From a phage: a DNA stretch of 64,000 nucleotides. The first letter of the stretch is position 1, and the number at the start of each line of letters is the position of its first letter. This document shows positions 4,231 to 29,295 of the stretch, one piece after another. A program made the translations under genes and the position numbers. Location: the sequence record PZ445489.1; one strand, written 5' to 3'. The notes beneath the pieces were generated by a model, which searched no databases, was not told the DNA's origin, and saw nothing but the letters and a program-made list of their open reading frames with translations.

Positions 4231-5607
4231 ATGACTATTGATATTAATAAGCTGAAAGAAGAACTTGGTCTGGGTGATCTGGCTAAATCTCTGGAAGGTC
4301 TGACCGCTGCTCAGAAAGCTCAGGAAGCTGAACGTATGCGTAAAGAGCAGGAAGAAAAAGAACTGGCTCGTATGAATGACCTGGTTTCTAAAGCAGTTGG
4401 CGAAGATCGTAAGCGTCTGGAAGAGGCTCTGGATCTGGTTAAGTCTCTGGATGAGAAATCTAAGAAGAGCGCAGAACTGTTTGCACAAACTGTAGAAAAA
4501 CAACAGGAAACTATTGTTGGTCTTCAGGATGAAATTAAATCTCTGCTGACAGCTCGTGAAGGTCGTTCCTTCGTTGGTGATAGTGTTGCTAAAGCACTGT
4601 ACGGTACTCAGGAAAACTTTGAAGATGAAGTTGAAAAACTGGTTCTGTTATCTTATGTAATGGAAAAGGGCGTATTCGAGACCGAACACGGTCAAAAACA
4701 CCTGAAAGCAGTGAATCAGTCTTCTTCTGTAGAAGTTTCTAGTGAAAGCTATGAAACTATTTTCTCTCAGCGTATTATCCGTGACCTGCAGAAAGAGCTT
4801 GTAGTTGGCGCACTGTTCGAAGAACTGCCGATGTCCAGTAAGATTCTTACTATGCTGGTTGAACCGGATGCTGGTAAAGCTACTTGGGTTGCTGCTTCTA
4901 CTTATGGTACTGATGCAACTACTGGTGATGAAGTTAAAGGTGCTCTTAAAGAAATCCACTTCAGTACTTACAAACTGGCTGCTAAGTCCTTCATTACTGA
5001 TGAAACTGAAGAAGATGCAATCTTCTCCCTGCTGCCACTGCTTCGTAAGCGTCTGATCGAAGCACACGCTGTTTCTATTGAAGAAGCCTTCATGACTGGT
5101 GATGGTTCCGGTAAACCGAAAGGTCTGCTGACTCTTGCTAGTGAAGATAGTGCTAAAGTTATTACTGAAGCTAAAGCTGATGGTTCCGTACTGGTAACTG
5201 CTAAAACTATCTCTAAATTGCGTCGTAAACTGGGCCGTCATGGTCTGAAACTGAGCAAACTGGTACTGATTGTATCTATGGATGCTTACTATGATCTGCT
5301 GGAAGATGAAGAATGGCAGGATGTTGCCCAAGTTGGTAATGATGCTGTTAAACTGCAGGGTCAGGTTGGTCGTATTTATGGTCTGCCGGTTGTAGTTTCT
5401 GAGTACTTCCCAGCTAAAGCTACTTCCGCAGAGTTCGCAGTTATTGTTTATAAAGATAACTTCGTAATGCCACGCCAGCGTGCTGTTACTGTTGAACGTG
5501 AGCGCCAAGCTGGTAAACAGCGTGACGCATACTACGTTACTCAGCGTGTTAACCTGCAACGTTACTTTGCAAATGGCGTTGTATCTGGTGCTTACGCTGC
5601 ATCTTAA
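4231..5607 (+). CDS. Major capsid protein precursor with N-terminal scaffolding (delta) domain
   Basis: 458 aa; charged coiled-coil N-terminus then HK97-like body; host-optimal codon usage; terminator follows. Confidence 0.9.
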   Translation: MTIDINKLKEELGLGDLAKSLEGLTAAQKAQEAERMRKEQEEKELARMNDLVSKAVGEDRKRLEEALDLVKSLDEKSKKSAELFAQTVEKQQETIVGLQDEIKSLLTAREGRSFVGDSVAKALYGTQENFEDEVEKLVLLSYVMEKGVFETEHGQKHLKAVNQSSSVEVSSESYETIFSQRIIRDLQKELVVGALFEELPMSSKILTMLVEPDAGKATWVAASTYGTDATTGDEVKGALKEIHFSTYKLAAKSFITDETEEDAIFSLLPLLRKRLIEAHAVSIEEAFMTGDGSGKPKGLLTLASEDSAKVITEAKADGSVLVTAKTISKLRRKLGRHGLKLSKLVLIVSMDAYYDLLEDEEWQDVAQVGNDAVKLQGQVGRIYGLPVVVSEYFPAKATSAEFAVIVYKDNFVMPRQRAVTVERERQAGKQRDAYYVTQRVNLQRYFANGVVSGAYAAS

Positions 5608-5626
5608 TACAGGCTTTTCAGCCGAT

Positions 5627-5652
5627 AAGGAGAGCTTCGGCTCTCCTTTTTT
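5627..5652 (+). terminator. Rho-independent terminator after capsid gene
   Basis: AAGGAGAGC-TTCG-GCTCTCCTT hairpin followed by TTTTTT. Confidence 0.8.
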
Positions 5653-5666
5653 ATTGGGAAAAATAA

Positions 5667-6179
5667 ATGCAAATAATCACAGCTGAAGACTATAGATTAT
5701 ATGGTGGGTTAAAACGACCTGAACTAGAATCTGGAGTAGAGATGATGATTACTGCTGCCAATGCGCTGATTACTAGCCTTTTAGGTATGGATGATGCTGA
5801 TGCGGTAGACCAGTTAATCAATACAAAACCTACTCGTAAAAAATACTTCTTAAGTTCTCCCTCGGCTACTTCAGTAACCAAAATGACTATTAACGACAAG
5901 GAGATAGATCCAGAACAATATAAGTTGTATTCTGATGGGGTTATACTTCTTAAATTTAATCCCCCAGAAGGTTATATGGGTGTAGAATACACACAAGGTG
6001 GATTTAATCCAATACCTGAGGATCTCAAACTTGCAGCATGTATGCTAGTAGATCATTGGCATAAACAGGATTACCGTCAAGCTAAAACAATTGGCGGAGA
6101 AACAGTTACTTTTAATAATACTAAGTCTGGTATTCCAGAGCATATTCGTACTATTATTGAAGTTTACAGGAGAGTATAA
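5667..6179 (+). CDS. Putative head completion / connector protein
   Basis: 170 aa ORF immediately downstream of capsid gene in head-tail junction position; no recognisable catalytic motif. Confidence 0.45.
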   Translation: MQIITAEDYRLYGGLKRPELESGVEMMITAANALITSLLGMDDADAVDQLINTKPTRKKYFLSSPSATSVTKMTINDKEIDPEQYKLYSDGVILLKFNPPEGYMGVEYTQGGFNPIPEDLKLAACMLVDHWHKQDYRQAKTIGGETVTFNNTKSGIPEHIRTIIEVYRRV

Positions 6180-6946
6180 TGTCTCTTTCTGATTTAGCTA
6201 CACAAATTATTAAGGAGCAGCTAGATAATGTTGGGCGTTCCGAGAACAATAAGAATACTGTTGTATATTCTGTTGAAACAGGACTGAAAGATCCTACTAG
6301 AGATGGTACTGTTGCTCAGGTATCTTTTAAATTCTCAAAACCTATATCCCAAGATCTCCTTAATGTTAGGACCGCTTCTATTCTAAAAGCAGTTTCTTCT
6401 AGCTTAGATCTAACAGGAGATTTAGGTGCTCTAGAGAATTTAATACAAGCAACCGCTGGTAAAAAATCTGCTGTAGGTAAAAAACGTTCTACTGGTAGAG
6501 TTCAAGTAAACTTTGGGGATCCTAGAGACGTAGAAGATGGATATTCTGGTGCAGTAACAGGTGCTTCTGGTCGTTTTGTATCAAATAGTAATATGAAGGT
6601 TATTCTGGAGTTGGTTGCTAAAGAATACTTAATAAAGGATATGAAAAAAGCAGGAGCTCCACTTAAATTTAGAACAGGTCGTTTTGCAAACTCTCTAAAA
6701 GTTAAAGATGTTATGCTTAGAGATGCTGGAACTAGCAAAGGTGCTCCGGAATTAAACGTTACATATAATTATATGGTACGTCCATATTCAGTATTTAATC
6801 CTGCAGTATCTACATATCGAAGATTGTCACTACGACCCTACCCAGGTGCTAGAAACCCTCAAAGACTAATTGGAGAGGCGATAGCTAAAGCTGCAAGAGA
6901 CTTAATTCACTCCAGATACAAAATTAAGGTTAATCAAGGAACCTAA
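6179..6946 (+). CDS. Hypothetical structural protein (head-tail joining region)
   Basis: 255 aa ORF, translationally coupled to neighbours within the structural operon. Confidence 0.4.
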   Translation: MSLSDLATQIIKEQLDNVGRSENNKNTVVYSVETGLKDPTRDGTVAQVSFKFSKPISQDLLNVRTASILKAVSSSLDLTGDLGALENLIQATAGKKSAVGKKRSTGRVQVNFGDPRDVEDGYSGAVTGASGRFVSNSNMKVILELVAKEYLIKDMKKAGAPLKFRTGRFANSLKVKDVMLRDAGTSKGAPELNVTYNYMVRPYSVFNPAVSTYRRLSLRPYPGARNPQRLIGEAIAKAARDLIHSRYKIKVNQGT

Positions 6947-6949
6947 TAA

Positions 6950-7435
6950 ATGGATCACAGAACAAGTATAGCACAAGCTCTGGTTGATCGAATAGCCAAA
7001 CAAATGGATGGCTCTCAACCAGATGAATATTTTAATAACTTGTATGGAAACGTCTCACGTCAAACTTATAAGTTTGAGGAGATACGAGAGTTTCCTTATG
7101 TTGCAGTTCATATCGGAACTGAAACTGGGCAGTATCTTCCCTCAGGTCAACAGTGGATGTTTTTAGAACTTCCTATCCTGGTGTATGATAAAGAGAAAAC
7201 AGACATTCAAGAGCAACTTGAAAAACTCGTAGCGGATATAAAAACCGTTATTGACACAGGTGGAAATTTAGAATATACTGTTAGTAAACCTAATGGATCG
7301 ACCTTCCCATGTGAGGCGACTGATATGAGCATTACATCAGTTAGTACAGATGAGGGTCTACTGGCCCCATATGGTTTAGCAGAAATAAATGTAACAGTGA
7401 GGTATCAGCCTCCACGTAGGTCACTTCGCAGATAA
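6950..7435 (+). CDS. Putative tail terminator / tail completion protein
   Basis: 161 aa ORF immediately upstream of the tail tube gene. Confidence 0.4.
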   Translation: MDHRTSIAQALVDRIAKQMDGSQPDEYFNNLYGNVSRQTYKFEEIREFPYVAVHIGTETGQYLPSGQQWMFLELPILVYDKEKTDIQEQLEKLVADIKTVIDTGGNLEYTVSKPNGSTFPCEATDMSITSVSTDEGLLAPYGLAEINVTVRYQPPRRSLRR

Positions 7436-7461
7436 GTTACAGATTAGGAGAAAATAATTAA

Positions 7462-8868
7462 ATGTCTTTACAACTATTACGTAATACTCGAATCTTCGTG
7501 TCTACGGTTAAGACTGGTCACGATAAGACCAACACGCAAGAGATTCTAGTTCAGGATGATATTTCTTGGGGTCAGGACAGTAACTCAACAGATATTACTG
7601 TTAACGAAGCTGGTCCGCGTCCTACTCGTGGTTCTAAACGTTTTAACGATTCCTTGAATGCAGCTGAGTGGAGCTTCTCCACCTATATCCTGCCATACAT
7701 GGATAAAACTACTAGCAAACAAATTGTTCCTGACTATATGTTATGGCATGCACTTTCTAGTGGTAAAGCTATTAACCTTGATGGAGATACTGGAGCACAT
7801 AATAATGCTACTAACTTCATGGTTAACTTCAAAGATAACGCATATCACGAACTGGCTATGCTGCATATTTACATTCTAACTGACAATGCGTGGAGTTACA
7901 TTGACTCTTGCCAGATCAACCAGGCAGAAGTTAACGTTGATATTGAAGATATTGGTCGTGTAACTTGGTCTGGTAACGGTAATCAGCTCATTCCGTTAGA
8001 TAGCCAACCATTTGACCCTGATGCATTAGGTATTGATGATGAAACTTATATGACTATTCAGAGTTCTTACATTAAGAACAAGTTAACTATCCTAAAAATT
8101 AAGGATATGGATTCTGATAAGGCATATGATATTCCTATTACTGGTGGTACTTTTACCATTAATAACAACATCACGTACCTAACCCCGAATATTATGTCAC
8201 GTGTAAATATTCCAATCGGCTCATTTACGGGTGCGTTTGAGTTAACGGGTTCTTTGACAGCTTACCTTAATGATAAGTCTCTTGGTTCTATGGAACTGTA
8301 CAAAGATCTGATTAAAACCCTTAAGGTAGTTAACCGTTTTGAAATCGCACTTATTTTGGGTGGAGAATATGACGAGGAACGTCCGGCAGCTGTGTTAGTT
8401 GCTAAACAGGCGCACGTTAATATCCCTACTATTGAGACTGATGATGTACTTGGTACTTCAGTAGAGTTTAAAGCTATTCCTACTGATTTGGATACTGGTG
8501 ACGAAGGTTATCTTGGATTTTCTAACAAGTATACAAAAACTACTGTGGCTAATCTGATTGCTACGGGGGATGGTGCTAAAATTCCTCCAGTTCCCGTTAA
8601 ATCCATTACAGTTAAGTCGGCAGGTGAGGCTGTTTCTGTAACAAATAGTAATACTTTACAGATGTCTGTTGAGGTAACACCTTCAGAAGCTACTAATAAG
8701 GCTGTAACTTGGTCTATTTCTAGTGGTAACGCAGCTACAATTGATGCAGAATCTGGGTTATTAACAGCTGATGCCTCTAAAACTGGTGCAGTTACTGTGA
8801 AGGCTGTAGCTAAAGATGGTTCTGGTGTAGAAGGTACTAAAACTATCACAGTTAGTGCTGGTGGTTAA
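7462..8868 (+). CDS. Major tail tube protein with C-terminal Ig-like (BIG2-type) domain (pb6-like)
   Basis: 468 aa; C-terminal ~90 aa Ig-like segment (SITVKSAGEAVSVTNSNTLQMSVEVTPSEATNKAVTWSISSGN); position before chaperones and tape measure. Confidence 0.8.
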   Translation: MSLQLLRNTRIFVSTVKTGHDKTNTQEILVQDDISWGQDSNSTDITVNEAGPRPTRGSKRFNDSLNAAEWSFSTYILPYMDKTTSKQIVPDYMLWHALSSGKAINLDGDTGAHNNATNFMVNFKDNAYHELAMLHIYILTDNAWSYIDSCQINQAEVNVDIEDIGRVTWSGNGNQLIPLDSQPFDPDALGIDDETYMTIQSSYIKNKLTILKIKDMDSDKAYDIPITGGTFTINNNITYLTPNIMSRVNIPIGSFTGAFELTGSLTAYLNDKSLGSMELYKDLIKTLKVVNRFEIALILGGEYDEERPAAVLVAKQAHVNIPTIETDDVLGTSVEFKAIPTDLDTGDEGYLGFSNKYTKTTVANLIATGDGAKIPPVPVKSITVKSAGEAVSVTNSNTLQMSVEVTPSEATNKAVTWSISSGNAATIDAESGLLTADASKTGAVTVKAVAKDGSGVEGTKTITVSAGG

Positions 8869-8872
8869 ATAA

Positions 8873-9775
8873 ATGTACTACTCTCTAATGCGAGAGTCAA
8901 AAGTTATAGTTGAGTATGATGGTAGGGCATTTCATTTTGATGCCCTATCAAACTATGATATACAGACTTCCTACGAGGAATTCAAGACTCTTCGTAGGAC
9001 TGTTCATCGTAGAACTAACTATGCAGACTCTATTATAAATGCTCAAACCCCCTCTTCTATCTCTCTAGCAATAAATTTCAGTAATACTCTTACAGAGGCT
9101 AACTTCTTTGAATGGTTAGGTTTTGATAGAAAAGGTAATACTTTCTTACTCCCACTATATAGTAGTAATATTGAACCTATTATGTTCAATATCTATATAG
9201 TAAATAAAGATAATAACTGTGTATATTTTGAAAACTGTTATGTATCTACGGTAGATTTTTCTTTAGATAAGAACATACCAATTCTTAATGTTGGTATTGA
9301 GTCTGGGAAATTCTCAGAAGTATCTACCTATAGAGAAGCAGCTTCTATTATACAGGGTGAAGTAATGTCTTACAGCCCAGTAATAGCTTCTACTAATGGC
9401 AGCATCTTACCCGGTCTTATTTCTGCCTCTTTATCTTTCCAACAGCAGTGCTCCTGGAGAGAGGATAAGAGTGTTTTTGATATAAATAAAATTTATAATA
9501 ATAAAAGAGCTTATGTAAATGAAATGAATGCTTCGGCAACCATTTCTCTATATTACTTGAAACGTTTTGCAGGAGATATGGTTTACAATATCGAACCGGA
9601 GACAGATGTACCTTTAAATATAAGAAATAATAATATTTCTATAGATTTTCCTTCAGCACGTATTACAAAACGCCTAGATTTCTCAGATGTGTATAGAGTT
9701 GAGTGGGATATTATACCTACTGCTTCTTCAGACCCAGTGAGAATAGATTTCTTTGGAGAAATTAAAAATGATTAA
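8873..9775 (+). CDS. Hypothetical tail structural protein (p140-like position)
   Basis: 300 aa, N/I/S-rich, AT-rich codon usage contrasting with neighbours; between tail tube and chaperone genes. Confidence 0.4.
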   Translation: MYYSLMRESKVIVEYDGRAFHFDALSNYDIQTSYEEFKTLRRTVHRRTNYADSIINAQTPSSISLAINFSNTLTEANFFEWLGFDRKGNTFLLPLYSSNIEPIMFNIYIVNKDNNCVYFENCYVSTVDFSLDKNIPILNVGIESGKFSEVSTYREAASIIQGEVMSYSPVIASTNGSILPGLISASLSFQQQCSWREDKSVFDINKIYNNKRAYVNEMNASATISLYYLKRFAGDMVYNIEPETDVPLNIRNNNISIDFPSARITKRLDFSDVYRVEWDIIPTASSDPVRIDFFGEIKND

Positions 9776-10172
9776 TTTAAAAGATATTACTCTTGATACT
9801 CGTACTATTACTCTTTCCTACCCAGGTATGCCGAACTTTAAATTAGAACTTAACTATATGTCTCGTGCTACCTCTAAACGTGTTATTTCTTCTGCTAAAC
9901 GCGATGAATGGGTTAATGGTACTTTGATTCAGGTACAGGATGATGATAAGTTCATTGAAGCCTTCGTTGACGCAGCTATTAAAGGTTGGACCGGTTTGAC
10001 TGTAGGTGACGTTGAAAAACTGATGCTGATTGAAACAGATGCTGATCCTGCTACTGAAGTTCCTTTTAGCCGCGATAATGCTGTAATGCTCATGCAGAAC
10101 TCTGCTGCGTTTGATTCTTGGATCAACCAGACAGTGTTCCACTTAGACACTTTTCGTAGCCCAAAAGCGTAA
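9753..10172 (+). CDS. Putative tail assembly chaperone
   Basis: 139 aa ORF upstream of tape measure gene; typical chaperone position. Confidence 0.45.
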   Translation: MEKLKMINLKDITLDTRTITLSYPGMPNFKLELNYMSRATSKRVISSAKRDEWVNGTLIQVQDDDKFIEAFVDAAIKGWTGLTVGDVEKLMLIETDADPATEVPFSRDNAVMLMQNSAAFDSWINQTVFHLDTFRSPKA

Positions 10173-10233
10173 AGAACTCCTAGATGCTGTTGCTGATTTT
10201 GCAGATAAGTGTATTAAAAGCTCAGCATCTAAA

Positions 10234-10602
10234 ATGACTAAACAACAATATTTAATACTTTGTGAATCAATGGGTATAGAGCCTGATCCTAAGGCCATGC
10301 CTGTTGAACTTGAAGACTTTCCCCCTATTGTAGCTACTAGTATGAATATTTATAACAGTCTAATTGACTGCTTCATACCAGGTGACTTTCCTATCTTTAT
10401 AGGTAAAGATAAGGCTGCTCTAGGTGTTTTATTTGATATTTATGGGATTACTGATCCTATAGAGAAAGAATTTGTTCTACACATTATCAATATATTTGAT
10501 GCTAAAGCTGTAGATGCTGCACGTAAACGTGCTGAGAAGCATAAACCGCAAAACGGAAGGATTCCTAACGTTAAGCCACATGCTAGATCTCGTGCACGGT
10601 AA
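10234..10602 (+). CDS. Putative tail assembly chaperone (possibly expressed as a frameshift extension of the upstream ORF)
   Basis: 122 aa; its reading frame is open back to 10147 and overlaps the end of the upstream chaperone ORF. Confidence 0.4.
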   Translation: MTKQQYLILCESMGIEPDPKAMPVELEDFPPIVATSMNIYNSLIDCFIPGDFPIFIGKDKAALGVLFDIYGITDPIEKEFVLHIINIFDAKAVDAARKRAEKHKPQNGRIPNVKPHARSRAR

Positions 10603-10637
10603 AAGTTTCCTCCAATGGGCGTTCCACGATGAGGCTT

Positions 10638-10668
10638 GGCTCTGGGTGATTTGCCCAGAGCCTTTTTT
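10638..10668 (+). terminator. Rho-independent terminator
   Basis: GGCTCTGGG-TGATTTG-CCCAGAGCC hairpin followed by TTTTTT. Confidence 0.75.
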
Positions 10669-10685
10669 ATTGGGAAAAATAAAAC

Positions 10686-13600
10686 ATGACTGATAAGCTA
10701 ATACGAGAATTACTAATAGACGTTAAACAGAAGGGGGCAACTCGTACTGCAAAGTCTATTGAAAACGTATCTGATGCGTTGGAAAATGCTGCTGCTGCTT
10801 CCGAACTGACAAATGAGCAGTTAGGTAAAATGCCCAGAACTCTTTATTCCATTGAGAGGGCAGCAGATAGAGCAGCGAAAAGTCTTACTAAAATGCAAGC
10901 TAGTAGGGGTATGGCTGGTATCACTAAATCCATTGATGGTATTGGTGATAAGCTAGACTACCTGGCTATCCAGCTTATTGAAGTAACAGATAAACTAGAA
11001 ATTGGATTCGATGGAGTTTCTAGATCTGTTAAAACAATGGGTAATGATGTTGCAGCTGCAACAGAAAAAGTCCAGGATAGATTATATGATACTAATAGAG
11101 CATTAGGTGGCACAGCTAGGGGTTTTAATGATACTGCTGGTGCCGCTGGTAGAGCTTCTAGAGCTATTGGTAATACTTCTGGTTCAGCACGTGGTGCAAC
11201 TCGTGATTTTGCGGCAATGGCTAAGATCGGTGGTAGTCTACCTATTATGTACGCAGCTCTTGCTTCCAACATCTTCGTTTTGCAATCAGCATTTGAACAA
11301 CTTAAACTAGGTGATCAGCTAAATCGTCTAGAAAAATTTGGTGTTATAGTAGGTACTCAGACAGGTACTCCTGTTCAGTCCCTTGCTAGATCACTACAAG
11401 AGGCAGCTGGCTATGCAATCTCTTTTGAAGAAGCTATGAGGCAAGCATCCTCAGCGTCCGCTTATGGATTTGACGCCGAACAACTTAATAAATTTGGTTT
11501 AGTAGCTCGTCGTGCTGCTGCTGTTCTTGGCGTTGATATGACTGATGCACTTAACCGTGTAATTAAGGGTGTATCTAAACAAGAAATCGAACTTCTGGAT
11601 GAACTTGGTGTTACTATTCGTCTTAATGATGCTTATGCTGATTACGTTAAGCAGTTAAATGCTGCAAACACAGGTATAACATATAATATTAACAGCCTTA
11701 CTACTTTCCAGAAACAGCAGGCGTATGCTAATGCTGTTATAGCAGAGTCTACTAAACGTTTTGGCTACTTAGATGAAGTTTTACGTGCTACTCCGTGGGA
11801 GCAATTTGCCGCTAATGCTGATGCCGCACTGAGAAAGATTCAGCAGGCTGCTGCTAAATACTTAGGGCCCGTAATTGATGCTATCAACACAGTATTTTAT
11901 ACTTCTCAGGCTTCTGTATCTGCTGAAGCAGCTAGAGCTCAAGAAAAAACTAATAGACAGATAGATCCTACCAACGTTGGTGCTGTTGCTTTAAGTTTAG
12001 CCGCTTCTGAAGAAGGGTATAATAAAGCTCTAGATATGTATAAGGAATCTCTTGATAAGCGTAATAAGCTAAAATCTGAGTTCGATAAACGAATGGAACA
12101 AGCAGATTTCTATACAAAATTAGCTATACGTCAAGTTGGTGAAGGTATTCCTGTTGGTCTTGCGGCAGCAGGTGCTTCGGAGGCCAATAAGCAATTTGTA
12201 GCAGAAACTGCAGCTATGGGTCTACAAGTAACTAGACTTGGTAAGGAAGTAGAGGATTCTACAGAGAATCTCAATGCTTGGAAATCAGCGTATCAAGCTG
12301 CTGGGGCCGCTGCTGCAAAGGCTAGTCCAGAGTTTCAGAAGCAAATTAATCTACAGAGAGATACTACTGATCCTGATGCTGTATACGATTTTAACTCTAC
12401 TGTATTAAAAGGACTAACTGAGCAGCAGAAAGCGTACAATCAGACTAAGAAAACGGCTAGTGACTTAGCTAATGACATACAGAACGTTGCTCAGAATACA
12501 GATACTGCTGCTAAAACTAGTGCTACTTTAGCAGATGCTATAAAAAACATAGAATCTCTATCTCTAGGTACTGGTAAGAGTGCTGATGAATATGTTAAAA
12601 ACCTTAATCTGGGTTATAACACCCTGTCTGAAATGAAAACTGCATCTCAGGCTCTATCTGAGTATGTTAAACTAACTGGTAATGAAACTAAAAATCAGTT
12701 AGCAGTTCAACAGAAGATAGCTGATGTATACAATCAAACTAAGGATAAGGAAAAGGCTCAGGAAGCTGGTAGACGTTTAGAGTTGCAACAGTTAGAAGAG
12801 CAAGAAGCTGCTTTACGCCGTGTTCTTCAAACAAACCAGGGGAATAAAGCTGTTGAGAAAGAAATTGAAAAAATTCAGCTGGAGAAACTTAAACTTACCA
12901 ATCAGGGTATGGAAGCTCAGAAGAAGATCAAGGATTACACAGATAAAATTCTTGGTGTAGATCGTGAGATAGCTCTTCTGAATGACCGTACTATGACTAC
13001 TACTCAATATAGATTAGCTCAGCTAAAACTAGAACTAACTGTAGAGAAAGAGAAGTACGAATGGTATACAAAACAAGCGGACAAACAGAAAGAGGCGGAA
13101 CAGTCTAGACGTGCTCAAGCACAAATAAGCAGGGAACTATGGGAAACGGAGAAGCAGGCAACTGCCTCACATGTATCAGCTCTCATGGATGCACTAGAAG
13201 TCAGCCAAACACAAAGAAATGTTACTGGCCAAGCTCAGATTCTTACGGAAAGATTATCTGTTTTGCAAGAACAGCTAGAACTATCTAAGGGCAATACCGA
13301 AGAAGAGATCAAGTATCGTAATGAGATCTATAAAACTGCTGCTGCTCTAGAGCAACTTAGAAAGCAAAGAGAAGGCCAAATGCAGCAACAGGTAGGATCT
13401 TCTGTGGGTGCTGTGTACACTCCTACAACTGGACTATCTGGGGAAGACAAAGATTTTGCAGATATGCAAAATAGAATGGCTTCTTATGATCAGGCAATCT
13501 CTAAGCTATCTGAATTAAATTCTGAAGCAACCGCTGTGGCTCAAAGTATGGGTAACTTAACTAACGCTATGATCCAGTTCTCTCAGGGATCCCTAGATAC

Positions 13601-14366
13601 TACCTCCTTGATTGCTTCTGGCATGCAAACTGTATCTTCTATGATTCAGTATAGTACTAGTCAACAGGTTAGTGCTATTGATGCAGCTATCGCAGCGGAG
13701 CAGAAACGTGATGGTAAATCAGAAGCATCTAAAGCTAAATTGAAGAAGCTAGAAGCTGAAAAGCTGAAGATTCAACAAGATGCAGCTAAGAAGCAGATTA
13801 TCATCCAAACTGCAGTAGCAGTTATGCAGGCAGCAACAGCTGTACCATACCCGTTCTCTATCCCTCTGATGGTAGCGGCAGGTTTGGCAGGTGCATTAGC
13901 TCTTGCTCAGGCATCCTCTGCATCTAGTATGTCAAGTATTGCGGATTCTGGGGCGGATACAACTAGTTACTTAACCTTAGGAGAGCGTCAGAAGAATATA
14001 GATGTGTCCATGTCTGCTAATGCAGGTGAACTATCTTATATTCGTGGCGATCAAGGTATAGGTAGTGCCAACTCTTTCGTTCCTCGTGCTGAGGGTGGTA
14101 ATATGTATCCAGGGGTTAGCTATCAAATGGGTGAGCATGGTACAGAAGTAGTTACCCCTATGGTTCCTATGAAAGCTACACCTAATGATGAGCTAAAAAC
14201 CTCGTCTAACTCAACTTCAGGAAGACCTATCATCCTGAATATTAGTGCTATGGATGCTGCAAGTTTTAGAGAGTTTGCCTCTAGTAATAGTGGTGCTCTG
14301 AGAGACGCAGTAGAATTAGCTCTGAATGAGAACGGTGCTAGTCTGAAAACATTAGGAAATTCTTAA
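10686..14366 (+). CDS. Tail tape measure protein (pb2-like)
   Basis: 1226 aa, long coiled-coil-rich Ala/Gln/Lys sequence with hydrophobic segment near C-terminus; between chaperones and distal tail protein. Confidence 0.9.
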   Translation: MTDKLIRELLIDVKQKGATRTAKSIENVSDALENAAAASELTNEQLGKMPRTLYSIERAADRAAKSLTKMQASRGMAGITKSIDGIGDKLDYLAIQLIEVTDKLEIGFDGVSRSVKTMGNDVAAATEKVQDRLYDTNRALGGTARGFNDTAGAAGRASRAIGNTSGSARGATRDFAAMAKIGGSLPIMYAALASNIFVLQSAFEQLKLGDQLNRLEKFGVIVGTQTGTPVQSLARSLQEAAGYAISFEEAMRQASSASAYGFDAEQLNKFGLVARRAAAVLGVDMTDALNRVIKGVSKQEIELLDELGVTIRLNDAYADYVKQLNAANTGITYNINSLTTFQKQQAYANAVIAESTKRFGYLDEVLRATPWEQFAANADAALRKIQQAAAKYLGPVIDAINTVFYTSQASVSAEAARAQEKTNRQIDPTNVGAVALSLAASEEGYNKALDMYKESLDKRNKLKSEFDKRMEQADFYTKLAIRQVGEGIPVGLAAAGASEANKQFVAETAAMGLQVTRLGKEVEDSTENLNAWKSAYQAAGAAAAKASPEFQKQINLQRDTTDPDAVYDFNSTVLKGLTEQQKAYNQTKKTASDLANDIQNVAQNTDTAAKTSATLADAIKNIESLSLGTGKSADEYVKNLNLGYNTLSEMKTASQALSEYVKLTGNETKNQLAVQQKIADVYNQTKDKEKAQEAGRRLELQQLEEQEAALRRVLQTNQGNKAVEKEIEKIQLEKLKLTNQGMEAQKKIKDYTDKILGVDREIALLNDRTMTTTQYRLAQLKLELTVEKEKYEWYTKQADKQKEAEQSRRAQAQISRELWETEKQATASHVSALMDALEVSQTQRNVTGQAQILTERLSVLQEQLELSKGNTEEEIKYRNEIYKTAAALEQLRKQREGQMQQQVGSSVGAVYTPTTGLSGEDKDFADMQNRMASYDQAISKLSELNSEATAVAQSMGNLTNAMIQFSQGSLDTTSLIASGMQTVSSMIQYSTSQQVSAIDAAIAAEQKRDGKSEASKAKLKKLEAEKLKIQQDAAKKQIIIQTAVAVMQAATAVPYPFSIPLMVAAGLAGALALAQASSASSMSSIADSGADTTSYLTLGERQKNIDVSMSANAGELSYIRGDQGIGSANSFVPRAEGGNMYPGVSYQMGEHGTEVVTPMVPMKATPNDELKTSSNSTSGRPIILNISAMDAASFREFASSNSGALRDAVELALNENGASLKTLGNS

Positions 14367-14373
14367 AACTGGA

Positions 14374-14400
14374 GGAGGACTTTGAGTCCTCCTTTTCTTT
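14374..14400 (+). terminator. Rho-independent terminator after tape measure gene
   Basis: GGAGGAC-TTTGA-GTCCTCC hairpin followed by TTTTCTTT. Confidence 0.75.
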
Positions 14401-14419
14401 ATGGAAAAATAAAAATTTC

Positions 14420-14448
14420 TTGATAAAATTTTCTAATACTATTATAAT
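14420..14448 (+). promoter_or_regulatory. Sigma70-type promoter upstream of distal tail gene
   Basis: TTGATA-17 nt-TATAAT, followed by AGGAG RBS and ATG at 14476. Confidence 0.5.
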
Positions 14449-14475
14449 ATTGTTATTAAAGAGGAGAAATTAACT

Positions 14476-15090
14476 ATGAGATTACCAGACCCATACACGA
14501 ATCCAGAACTTTCAGGCTTAGGATTCGAAAGTGTTAACCTGATTGATAATGACCCAGTAATTCGTGATGAGTTACCTAATGGTAAAGTTAACGAAGTTAA
14601 GGTATCCGCTCAGTACTGGGGTATAAACATTTCTTACCCAGAATTGTTTCCTGATGAATTCAGTGTTCTAGATTCCTTTATTCTAGAGTATAAGAGGACA
14701 GGAGGCTACATTGATGTTATACTACCTCAGTATGAGGCTTTTAGGGTTAGGGGTAATACTAACTTAGTAAATATACCTGCTGGACAGAAAGGTTCCAATA
14801 TTACTATGGATACAAAAGGTGTTCTTACCGGTATTCCTAAACCAGGTGATTTATTTAAGTTATCCAATCACCCAAAAGTTTATAAAATAACATCATTTAA
14901 TAGATCTGGTAATTCATGGTCTATTAACGTATATCCTGATTTATTTGTAACTACTACTGGAGCTGAAAAACCAGTATTTAATGGGATACTATTTAGAACA
15001 AAACTCATGAATGGTGATGCTTTCGGATCTACATTAAATAATAACGGAACATATTCCGGCATCTCATTAAATTTACGGGAAAGTTTATGA
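14476..15090 (+). CDS. Distal tail protein (Dit, pb9-like)
   Basis: 204 aa directly after tape measure; strong RBS AAAGAGGAGAAA. Confidence 0.75.
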   Translation: MRLPDPYTNPELSGLGFESVNLIDNDPVIRDELPNGKVNEVKVSAQYWGINISYPELFPDEFSVLDSFILEYKRTGGYIDVILPQYEAFRVRGNTNLVNIPAGQKGSNITMDTKGVLTGIPKPGDLFKLSNHPKVYKITSFNRSGNSWSINVYPDLFVTTTGAEKPVFNGILFRTKLMNGDAFGSTLNNNGTYSGISLNLRESL

Positions 15091-29257: not shown

Positions 29258-29295
29258 TGTATATATTATACTAGATTTCGAGAGAATTTAGCAAC
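29258..29295 (-). promoter_or_regulatory. Early sigma70-type promoter (proximal copy of tandem pair)
   Basis: TTGCTA-18 nt-TATAAT with conserved downstream TATAATATATACATAAATT box. Confidence 0.55.

Follow-up and report, generated by a model that had tools for sequence, protein, structure and literature searches.

A sequence recurring after three late terminators of a T5-like phage is probably a look-alike of two ordinary signals

The sequence that recurs immediately 3' of three intrinsic terminators in the compact late operon of a T5-like phage is very probably a look-alike of two ordinary signals, each placed directly after its terminator. In all likelihood, the exact 11-mer found at the three sites, GGAAAAATAAA, represents a weak ribosome-binding site following a leaky terminator at the first two of them and the A-rich block preceding a known late promoter at the third, so that a tempting 'late motif' resolves into two unrelated signals. 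The analysis covered a window of 64,000 nucleotides (sequence record PZ445489.1), which belongs to a T5-like phage of the genus Tequintavirus and is 97.8% identical to phage SP15. The following features, all on the + strand, are referred to throughout (SD, Shine-Dalgarno).

5627-5655 (+): intrinsic terminator T1, after the major capsid gene (4231-5607)
5656-5669 (+): site 1, region of translation initiation for the head completion gene (5667-6179), assigned from SD energy, homologous SD words and the N-terminus
7251-7279 (+): late promoter TTGACA-17-TATACT, located within the tail-terminator gene, 5' of the major tail gene (7462)
10606-10634 (+): non-coding block TTTCCTCCAATGGGCGTTCCACGATGAGG, conserved, following the stop codon of the chaperone gene and preceding T2
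10638-10671 (+): intrinsic terminator T2, after the tail-chaperone gene (10234-10602)
10672-10688 (+): site 2, region of translation initiation for the tape measure gene pb2 (10686-14366), assigned from SD energy, homologous SD words and the N-terminus
14371-14401 (+): intrinsic terminator T3, after the tape measure gene, consisting of the hairpin 14371-14395 and the tail TCTTTA
14403-14419 (+): site 3, the A-rich block GGAAAAATAAAAATTTC preceding the late promoter, which spans approximately -52 to -36 and lies directly before the -35 hexamer
14420-14478 (+): sigma-70 late promoter, TTGATA (14420-14425), 17-nt spacer and TATAAT (14443-14448), with 11 of 12 consensus matches

An earlier note on this DNA had reported nearly the same sequence after the three late terminators, and this was borne out: GGAAAAATAAA occurs in three exact copies (5657-5667, 10673-10683 and 14403-14413), all on the + strand and none elsewhere in the window, located 8-11 nt 3' of terminator-like hairpins at 5627-5648, 10638-10662 and 14371-14395. 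Dinucleotide shuffles of the window gave an expected count of 0.17 compared with the three copies observed, and a first-order Markov model built on the intergenic DNA (4.9 kb) gave 0.026. A similar frequency in coding sequence had been named as the finding that would speak against such a motif; 59 kb of coding sequence contained no copy on either strand. Sites 1 and 2 have 22 identical bases in common (CTTTTTTATTGGGAAAAATAAA), and the likeness of the sites also covers TTTAT(T)GG. The positions first given for sites 2 and 3 were correct, but at site 1 TTATTGGGAAAAATAAA lies at 5651-5667 and not at 5653-5669, its final A being the A of the ATG at 5667. As had been noted, an ATG follows the motif directly in two cases (5667 and 10686), while at site 3 another 60 nt precede the ATG (14476). 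The motif is retained at all three sites in nearly all of the 28 close relatives compared, and phage T5 lacks the copy at site 2. A universal terminator-downstream signal was rejected, since, among the intergenic terminator-like hairpins of the window (about 12), only T1, T2 and T3 carry the motif and approximately nine do not. A mobile or repeated element was likewise rejected, because the site-1 29-mer and the block upstream of T2 were found once per genome and only in Demerecviridae contigs of 104-123 kb; the match of L080 to the searched element was a GC-rich chance hit.

T1 starts 20 nt past the stop at 5607 and comprises 9 bp with a UUCG loop (hairpin 5627-5648, AAGGAGAGC-TTCG-GCTCTCCTT) followed by U6AUU (the U-tract TTTTTTATT, 5647-5655). 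T2 starts 36 nt past the stop at 10602, with 11 bp (hairpin 10638-10662) and the same U6AUU tract (TTTTTTATT, 10663-10671), and T3 starts 5 nt past the stop at 14366, with 11 bp followed by UCUUUA. All three are annotated as terminators in the records of relatives. Compensatory changes were present in 6 of 13 pairs of T2, and 7 of 9 pairs of T3 covary. The core of T1 is invariant in 11 lineages (covarying pairs, 2 of 10), and T1 together with the motif forms the most conserved 30-nt bin of the region, with 90-100% identity compared with approximately 30-60% in the adjoining head completion gene. The near-invariance of T1 in sequence, which is not seen for T2 and T3, hints at some extra constraint. 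Bidirectional termination was rejected, as the minus strand carries no T-run after the hairpins.

It had also been claimed that the space between terminator and ATG leaves no room for a conventional promoter or SD sequence. The first part stood, as no sigma-70 promoter was found in the interval from T1 to 5667 or in that from T2 to 10686, but the second did not, because the motif itself contains the SD word GGGA. At site 1, a weak SD (GGGA, 5656-5659) is followed by an A-rich spacer (5660-5666) and the ATG (5667-5669), giving a distance of 7 nt from GGGA to the ATG; at site 2, GGGA (10672-10675) is followed by a spacer (10676-10685) and the ATG at 10686, giving 10 nt. The predicted duplex of GGGA with the anti-SD is -4.2 kcal/mol at both sites, which is weak and within the range of the other late genes, as is the spacing, and the gene at 15087 likewise has GGGAAAG as its SD word. 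Comparison of 12 lineages showed that the hairpin and TTTTTTATT are fixed, while the next block varies among SD-type words located 5-10 nt from the ATG. The words observed at homologous positions are GGGA, GGGT, AGGT, GGAGT, GAGGT, AGGTGA, GGAGGT and AGGAG (at site 1, GGGT, AGGT, GGAGT or GGAGGT in other lineages), and distant relatives carry a canonical GGAGG, AGGAG or GAGGT at the same alignment position. In phages Spivey and Slocum, ribosome-binding site features are annotated at the SD position.

The N-termini of the head completion protein (MQIITAEDY...) and of the tape measure protein (MTDKLIREL...) are conserved from Met1 in 10-12 lineages, and the variation after the ATG falls at third codon positions. 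High-copy genes of the same operon carry strong SDs (GGAG, AGGAG) with a similar A/T-rich spacer, for example AGGAGAAAATAATTAAATG, and near-copies of the motif elsewhere are ribosome-binding sites too (37446, minus strand, TTGGAGAAAAATAATAATG; 40759, minus strand, AAGGAAATATAAAATATG). The ribosome-site half can be physically uncoupled from the terminator tail TTTTTTATT. In T5, a gene of 250 aa is inserted directly after TTTTTTATT, abolishing the site-2 motif, and in KKP_3711 the SD lies 15 nt further on and TTTTTTATT remains at the hairpin; among close relatives, site 2 varies in A-run length and in its spacing from the ATG. The 'unusual translation-initiation context' put forward earlier was therefore of the right category for sites 1 and 2, but the context is conventional, if weak, and not unusual. 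The cross-genus conservation of the initiation region at sites 1 and 2, TTATTGGGWAAAATAAATG, exceeds what a weak SD alone would need, and this hints at some further constraint on the sequence.

At site 3, the promoter has a predicted start near 14455 and precedes the distal tail protein gene, which has its ATG at 14476 and a strong SD (GAGGAG, 14461-14466). A comparable promoter is kept in 12 of 12 lineages. In the T5 record AY587007, the orthologous 75 nt are labelled 'putative late promoter T5P39' and start exactly at TATGGAAAAATAAA, and a promoter is annotated at this location in phage PR1. T5P39 is probably PG25; a text search of the literature with the promoter sequences gave no match. 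The late promoters of T5 are sigma-70 promoters, and two of them, PG25 and PJ5, have been mapped by primer extension (PMC7472727). The A-tract AAAAATAAAAATT is located at approximately -50 to -38 of the site-3 promoter, and the distal UP subsite is poorly matched. A block of this type also precedes about 25 further promoters of the window, for instance AGAAAAATAAAAATTTTAG-TTGCTA at 29294 on the minus strand, and T5-like promoters have an AT-rich -43 region, AAAAATT (PMC3326045). The A-tract is conserved in 12 lineages, and the GG is not conserved beyond the T5-like and Sugarlandvirus lineages. Judged by its sequence, the site-3 block is a UP-element-like element, the '-43 region' of T5 promoters. 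An exact 11-mer at this site is improbable as mere chance (about 0.03 expected in intergenic DNA). We attribute the resemblance to two causes, namely that both signals have 'GG plus an A-run' preceded by a T-run, and that the promoter blocks form a family, RGAAAAAT, although common descent or a shared constraint could be its source instead. The proposal of a conserved late-expression signal was right in that the sequence is conserved and matters for late expression, but not in treating it as one unit, the third copy being the upstream A-tract of a sigma-70 promoter.

We consider it unlikely that terminator and motif together form a single cis-acting RNA element common to the sites (an operator, or a site of processing) that would co-regulate the late genes. 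Its recogniser would be RNase E or another nuclease, or else a translational repressor or antiterminator encoded by the phage, all of which we regard as improbable. A/U-rich single-stranded RNA beside a hairpin is a typical context for RNase E, and a shared signal would agree with the 22-nt identity of sites 1 and 2, with the retention of TTATTGGGWAAAATAAATG across genera at one or other site and with the conservation peak over T1 and the motif. However, the motif has no fixed word, its A-rich spacer being replaced by ACTAC or ACATA in KKP_3711 and KEY, the GG block behaves like an SD, only the A-tract of site 3 is common with other lineages, and T5 does without the site-2 copy. Rfam covariance models applied to 5400-14700 gave only two matches (E of about 5), both far below the gathering score, so that no Rfam family matches, and a candidate binding protein was not found. 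A processing site, which the earlier note had suggested, received no support among the sequence evidence examined.

A related proposal is that the T1 hairpin-UUUUUUAUU-GGGWAAAAUAAAUG, its T2 twin and TTTCCTCCA-N-GGGCGTTCC-N-GAGG upstream of T2 are cis-acting RNA operators for a putative phage factor, to which we give little credence. If it were true, this factor, acting as a translational repressor or antiterminator, would hold the head completion and tape measure genes at their very low output, and the conservation would reflect factor recognition and not generic terminator or ribosome-binding site function. The block upstream of T2 (10606-10634) is the best-conserved 30-nt bin around site 2 and has no Rfam match. 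As coding explanations of this block, stop-codon read-through, extension by a frameshift (ORF 10514-10693) and a mini-ORF (ATGAGGCTTGGCTCTGGGTGA) were each discarded, given lineage indels that are not multiples of 3, extra stops and an ATG that is not conserved. A role as an anti-SD mimic against the tape measure initiation region was also rejected, the pairing energies of -4 to -8 kcal/mol being mostly no better than those of shuffles. The same was true of a host counterpart, as a search of 596 Gb returned 38 matches, from unrelated taxa and none from Enterobacterales, which is about the chance number for 18 specified bases.

It is very improbable that the U-tail UUUAUU pairs with the spacer AAUAAA in a mini-hairpin that holds GGGAAA in a 6-nt loop and tunes the translation of read-through transcripts. 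Although this structure is in the predicted minimum-energy fold at site 1, it is missing from the centroid fold and amounts to only -1.5 to -2.8 kcal/mol. UUUAUU-N6-AAUAAA or longer is present in about 10 of 24 site-by-lineage cases, including site 1 of Vibrio phi3 (8 bp, -2.8 kcal/mol), but no hairpin is predicted in six of the 24 (0.0 kcal/mol) and the pairing is weaker than -1 kcal/mol in five more. Furthermore, it seldom beats composition-matched shuffles, and any A-rich spacer 3' of a U-tract yields such pairing.

That sites 1 and 2 hold a late promoter of a non-canonical kind is extremely unlikely, even though the motif resembles the block preceding the genuine late promoter of site 3 and AY587007 labels the site-1 region (equivalent to window 5618-5707) 'putative late promoter T5P40', as there is no usable -35/-10 pair around or after the motif (TTGGGA lacks a -10 at 16-18 nt, and AATAAT at 5672-5677 lacks a -35) and T5 late genes use sigma-70 promoters (PMC7472727). 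The T5P40 annotation places the start of ORF137 at an ATG within the gene (window 5745), but the stretch of 26 residues preceding that ATG is conserved as protein as far as Vibrio phages, with variation at third codon positions, so a transcript starting within the T5P40 region would lack the true start codon. The public T5 annotation of this promoter, with its internal ORF137 start, is probably wrong.

The reading of sites 1 and 2 as weak ribosome-binding sites after leaky terminators has counterparts elsewhere. The rpsU-dnaG-rpoD operon of E. coli has an internal terminator and a poor ribosome-binding site before dnaG, and the rplL-rpoB attenuator and the leaky T-phi terminator of phage T7 are further intra-operon examples. 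As in these systems, a GC-rich hairpin and U-tract are located between a highly expressed and a low-level gene, and the downstream late gene is promoterless and has a weak SD. Unlike them, the phage SD starts right after the 9-nt U-tract, so that terminator tail and ribosome-binding site abut; in addition, the phage T1 sequence is unusually invariant across genera, and read-through in the phage is what we infer. Sites 1 and 2 also resemble SD sites with A/U-rich spacers in having a block of purines, 5-10 nt before the AUG, that is complementary to the 3' end of 16S rRNA, but differ from usual SD sites in that the match is weak and the whole initiation region is more conserved across genera. 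A UP element is carried by rrnB P1, and site 3 resembles such elements and the T5 '-43 region' in having an A-tract that immediately precedes the -35 hexamer of a sigma-70 promoter close to consensus; unlike a full UP element, it fits the proximal A-tract only, and contact with the alpha-CTD is predicted.

According to the layout that we propose, sites 1 and 2 follow the pattern TTTTTTATT-GGGAAAAATAA(A)-ATG, in which a terminator U-tract is fused to the ribosome-binding site of the next cistron, the latter half providing a weak SD (GGGA) and an A-rich, unstructured spacer. Since the head completion and tape measure genes have no promoter of their own, they would be expressed only by polymerases reading through T1 or T2; the transcripts reaching T2 likely come from the promoter at 7251-7279, which was found in 12 of 12 lineages. 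Partial termination and a weak SD may then step expression down from abundant proteins, namely the capsid (about 775 copies) and the tail tube (about 120 copies), to rare ones, namely the head completion protein (12) and the tape measure (3). The major capsid protein is present at 13 per asymmetric unit at T=13, the head completion protein is dodecameric and the tape measure is three-stranded (PMC10713586). T3 would close the unit and the strong sigma-70 late promoter would restart transcription, its upstream A-tract probably contacting the C-terminal domain of the RNA polymerase alpha subunit in the fashion of a UP element. Our literature search found no transcript-end map for T5-like phages.

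The terminators, ribosome-binding sites and late promoter are already annotated in public records of the T5 family, and the promoter is of a classic type; only the sequence-invariant T1 and the block before T2 might hide something new. The layout of the late operon, with strong SDs on high-copy genes followed by a terminator and a weak SD before low-copy genes, would provide a testable account of how a step in stoichiometry of approximately 40-65-fold is encoded.

More than 500 genomes of the T5 family aligned to the 10 kb around the motif sites, and Escherichia phage SP15 matched it at 97.8% identity. Based on gene calls and on the product names in relatives' records, we assigned the late genes as follows:

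4231-5607, + strand, major capsid protein
5667-6179, + strand, head completion protein
7462-8868, + strand, major tail protein
ending at 10602, + strand, tail chaperones
10686-14366, + strand, tape measure protein pb2
from 14476, + strand, distal tail protein

Intrinsic terminators follow the capsid, chaperone and tape measure genes (T1, T2 and T3), with the motif downstream of each (sites 1, 2 and 3). With 13 capsid subunits in each asymmetric unit at T=13, a virion requires about 775 of them but only 12 copies of the head completion protein; its tail tube takes many trimers, its tape measure only three strands (PMC10713586).

The motif GGAAAAATAAA was found exactly three times in the window (starts 5657, 10673 and 14403), only on the + strand and never in coding sequence, as compared with 0.17 copies expected from shuffles and 0.026 when the 4.9 kb of intergenic DNA in the window is modelled as a Markov chain. 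Each copy was preceded by a terminator-like hairpin (5627-5648, 10638-10662 and 14371-14395), which bears out the recurrence after three late terminators described in an earlier note, although its coordinates for site 1 were two bases too high. About nine further intergenic terminator-like hairpins in the window have no copy of it, so the motif does not accompany terminators in general. Sites 1 and 2 have 22 identical bases in common, and the three intergenic regions were essentially invariant in 28 close relatives, while flanking codons varied at third positions. In the close relatives L009 and L020, the A-run of site 2 was polymorphic in length (GGGAAAAAATAAA, GGGAAAATAAA) and the motif-to-ATG distance differed by 0-3 nt. 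Near-matches elsewhere in the window fell at ribosome sites (37446- and 40759-) and in a promoter upstream block (29303-).

We then compared 12 Demerecviridae lineages (the window, phiR201, Eos, KKP_3711, Erwinia KEY, Klebsiella Spivey, Serratia Slocum, Pectobacterium My1, Proteus RP7, Providencia PR1 and the Vibrio phages phi3 and 70E35-3), and the alignments indicate that sites 1 and 2 are the ribosome-binding regions of the downstream genes. The hairpin and its tail TTTTTTATT were fixed throughout and always followed by a Shine-Dalgarno (SD)-type word varying by lineage (GGGA, GGGT, AGGT, GGAGT, GAGGT, AGGTGA, GGAGGT or AGGAG), located 5-10 nt from the ATG, and the A-rich spacer was swapped for ACTAC or ACATA in two of the 12. 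Proteins read from the site-1 and site-2 ATGs were conserved from residue one. Pairing of the window's GGGA with the 16S 3' end (-4.2 kcal/mol, spacers of 7 nt at site 1 and 10 nt at site 2) was weak, yet inside the range of other late genes, and gene 15087 also uses GGGAAAG. Genes for abundant proteins in this operon have strong SDs and spacers that are A/T-rich in the same style: the capsid gene SD is GGAG, and in nearly all lineages AGGAGAAAATAATTAAATG stands at the start of the major tail gene.

The two halves of these sites can be separated. In phage T5, a gene for a 250-aa protein (CapR homology domain and treble-clef zinc finger) is inserted directly 3' of T2's TTTTTTATT, the GGGAAAAATAAA half of site 2 is absent and the insert overlaps the tape measure gene at its end. 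In KKP_3711 the SD is displaced 15 nt downstream. TTTTTTATT is therefore part of the terminator, and GGGAAAAATAA goes with the downstream gene. Extra genes at the T2/tape measure junction were located in T5 (L015, 15020-15772) and in Vibrio phages (L032, 15048-15803; L044, 10145-10882); the phi3 insert is a 251-aa ORF unrelated to T5's protein, and 70E35-3 likewise carries an extra ORF. This position appears to be a hot spot for insertions.

At site 3, the motif forms the upstream block of a predicted late promoter. It ends 6 nt 5' of TTGATA-17-TATAAT (11 of 12 consensus positions matched), placing it at about -52 to -42, and some 25 further promoters of the window have a like block (…GAAAAATTTnnn) directly 5' of the -35 element; the promoter at 29294(-) reads AGAAAAATAAAAATTTTAG-TTGCTA. 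An AT-rich -43 region (AAAAATT) has been described as a promoter feature in a T5-like genome (PMC3326045). Strong sigma-70 promoters precede T5 late genes, and primer extension has mapped two of them, PG25 and PJ5, as late promoters (PMC7472727). In the T5 record AY587007, the orthologous 75 nt are annotated 'putative late promoter T5P39', starting exactly at TATGGAAAAATAAA. All 12 lineages retained a -35, a -10 and an A-tract near -46 to -40. Going by the published sequences, T5P39 is probably PG25.

At the distal tail gene start (14458-14478, +), the 21-mer AAAGAGGAGAAATTAACTATG exactly matches the ribosome-binding site used for primers and constructs in 14 papers on expression vectors; this site is presumably 'RBSII' of pQE, which is said to come from T5 promoter PG25. 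The tail-terminator gene (6950-7435) contains a near-consensus promoter (TTGACA-17-TATACT, 7251-7279, +), about 180 nt upstream of the major tail gene and kept within coding sequence in 12 of 12 lineages, Vibrio phages included; by its sequence, it is probably the T5 late promoter PJ5. The large terminase gene is followed by a terminator-like hairpin (1327-1358, +) and, less than 20 nt on, by a promoter-like TTTACA-17-TATACT (1377-1405), the same terminator-then-promoter order as at site 3.

The observation in the earlier note is confirmed and its interpretation supported in part: sites 1 and 2 serve translation initiation, but site 3 is a promoter upstream block. Both signals amount to 'GG plus an A-run' after a T-run, the promoter blocks forming a family RGAAAAAT…, and chance alone does not comfortably account for the shared 11-mer (about 0.03 copies expected). 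A function common to the two roles is nevertheless unlikely, because the GG of site 3 is retained in only two lineages (T5-like phages and Sugarlandvirus), while KEY has GC in its place with AAAAATAAAAAA kept. A common operator or processing site is likewise disfavoured, since the word is not preserved as such across lineages and the site-2 copy is absent from T5 itself. A mini-hairpin that would pair the U-tail with the A-spacer and hold the SD in its loop has marginal standing: its predicted energy is only -1.5 to -2.8 kcal/mol, and about half of the cases have a weak one or none. In AY587007, the T1/site-1 region (101552-101679, window 5618-5745) carries the label 'putative late promoter T5P40', and an internal ATG is given as the start of ORF137; site 1 lacks promoter hexamers and the internal start contradicts the conserved N-terminus, so both the label and that start are probably wrong. 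The motif feature is ordinary and largely annotated already in public records.

No promoter was found in the stretch from T1 to 5667 or in that from T2 to 10686, so expression of the head completion and tape measure genes would have to depend on transcripts that read through the terminators. A leaky terminator with an adjoining weak SD would most likely produce a two-level step-down in expression, from the abundant capsid and tail-tube proteins to the scarce head completion and tape measure proteins; T3 would close the unit, and a strong promoter with its A-tract, together with a strong SD (GAGGAG), would turn expression on again at the tail tip genes. The anatomy of these terminator, SD and promoter parts and their conservation are directly observed; read-through and its magnitude are inferred, and the A-tract of site 3 would contact the alpha-CTD.

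T1 (GGAGAGC-TTCG-GCTCTCC plus TTTTTTATT, 5627-5655, +) was conserved almost to the letter all the way from T5 to the phages of Proteus and Providencia. Identity in the bin containing its 3' half and the motif was 90-100%, as compared with about 30-60% for the adjacent head completion gene, whose protein in RP7 and PR1 shares only about 30% identity with that of the window. In T1, covariation was limited to 2 of 10 pairs, while T2 and T3 change by compensatory substitutions, as ordinary hairpins do, suggesting that T1 may be under sequence-specific constraint beyond hairpin stability. Just 3' of the capsid stop codon lies a small hairpin (GGCT-TTTC-AGCC, 5612-5623, +), and most lineages have a GGC...GCC stem with a variable loop, then GA, in the same place. 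Between the chaperone stop codon and T2, a 29-nt block (TTTCCTCCAATGGGCGTTCCACGATGAGG, 10606-10634, +) containing an anti-SD-like CCTCC and GAGG was conserved in ten Demerecviridae lineages and partly in Vibrio phi3. It was rejected as coding sequence, and no covariation-supported fold, Rfam match or host counterpart was found for it. The invariance of T1 and the block upstream of T2 leave the verdict on the motif unchanged, and they are where anything new would be found.
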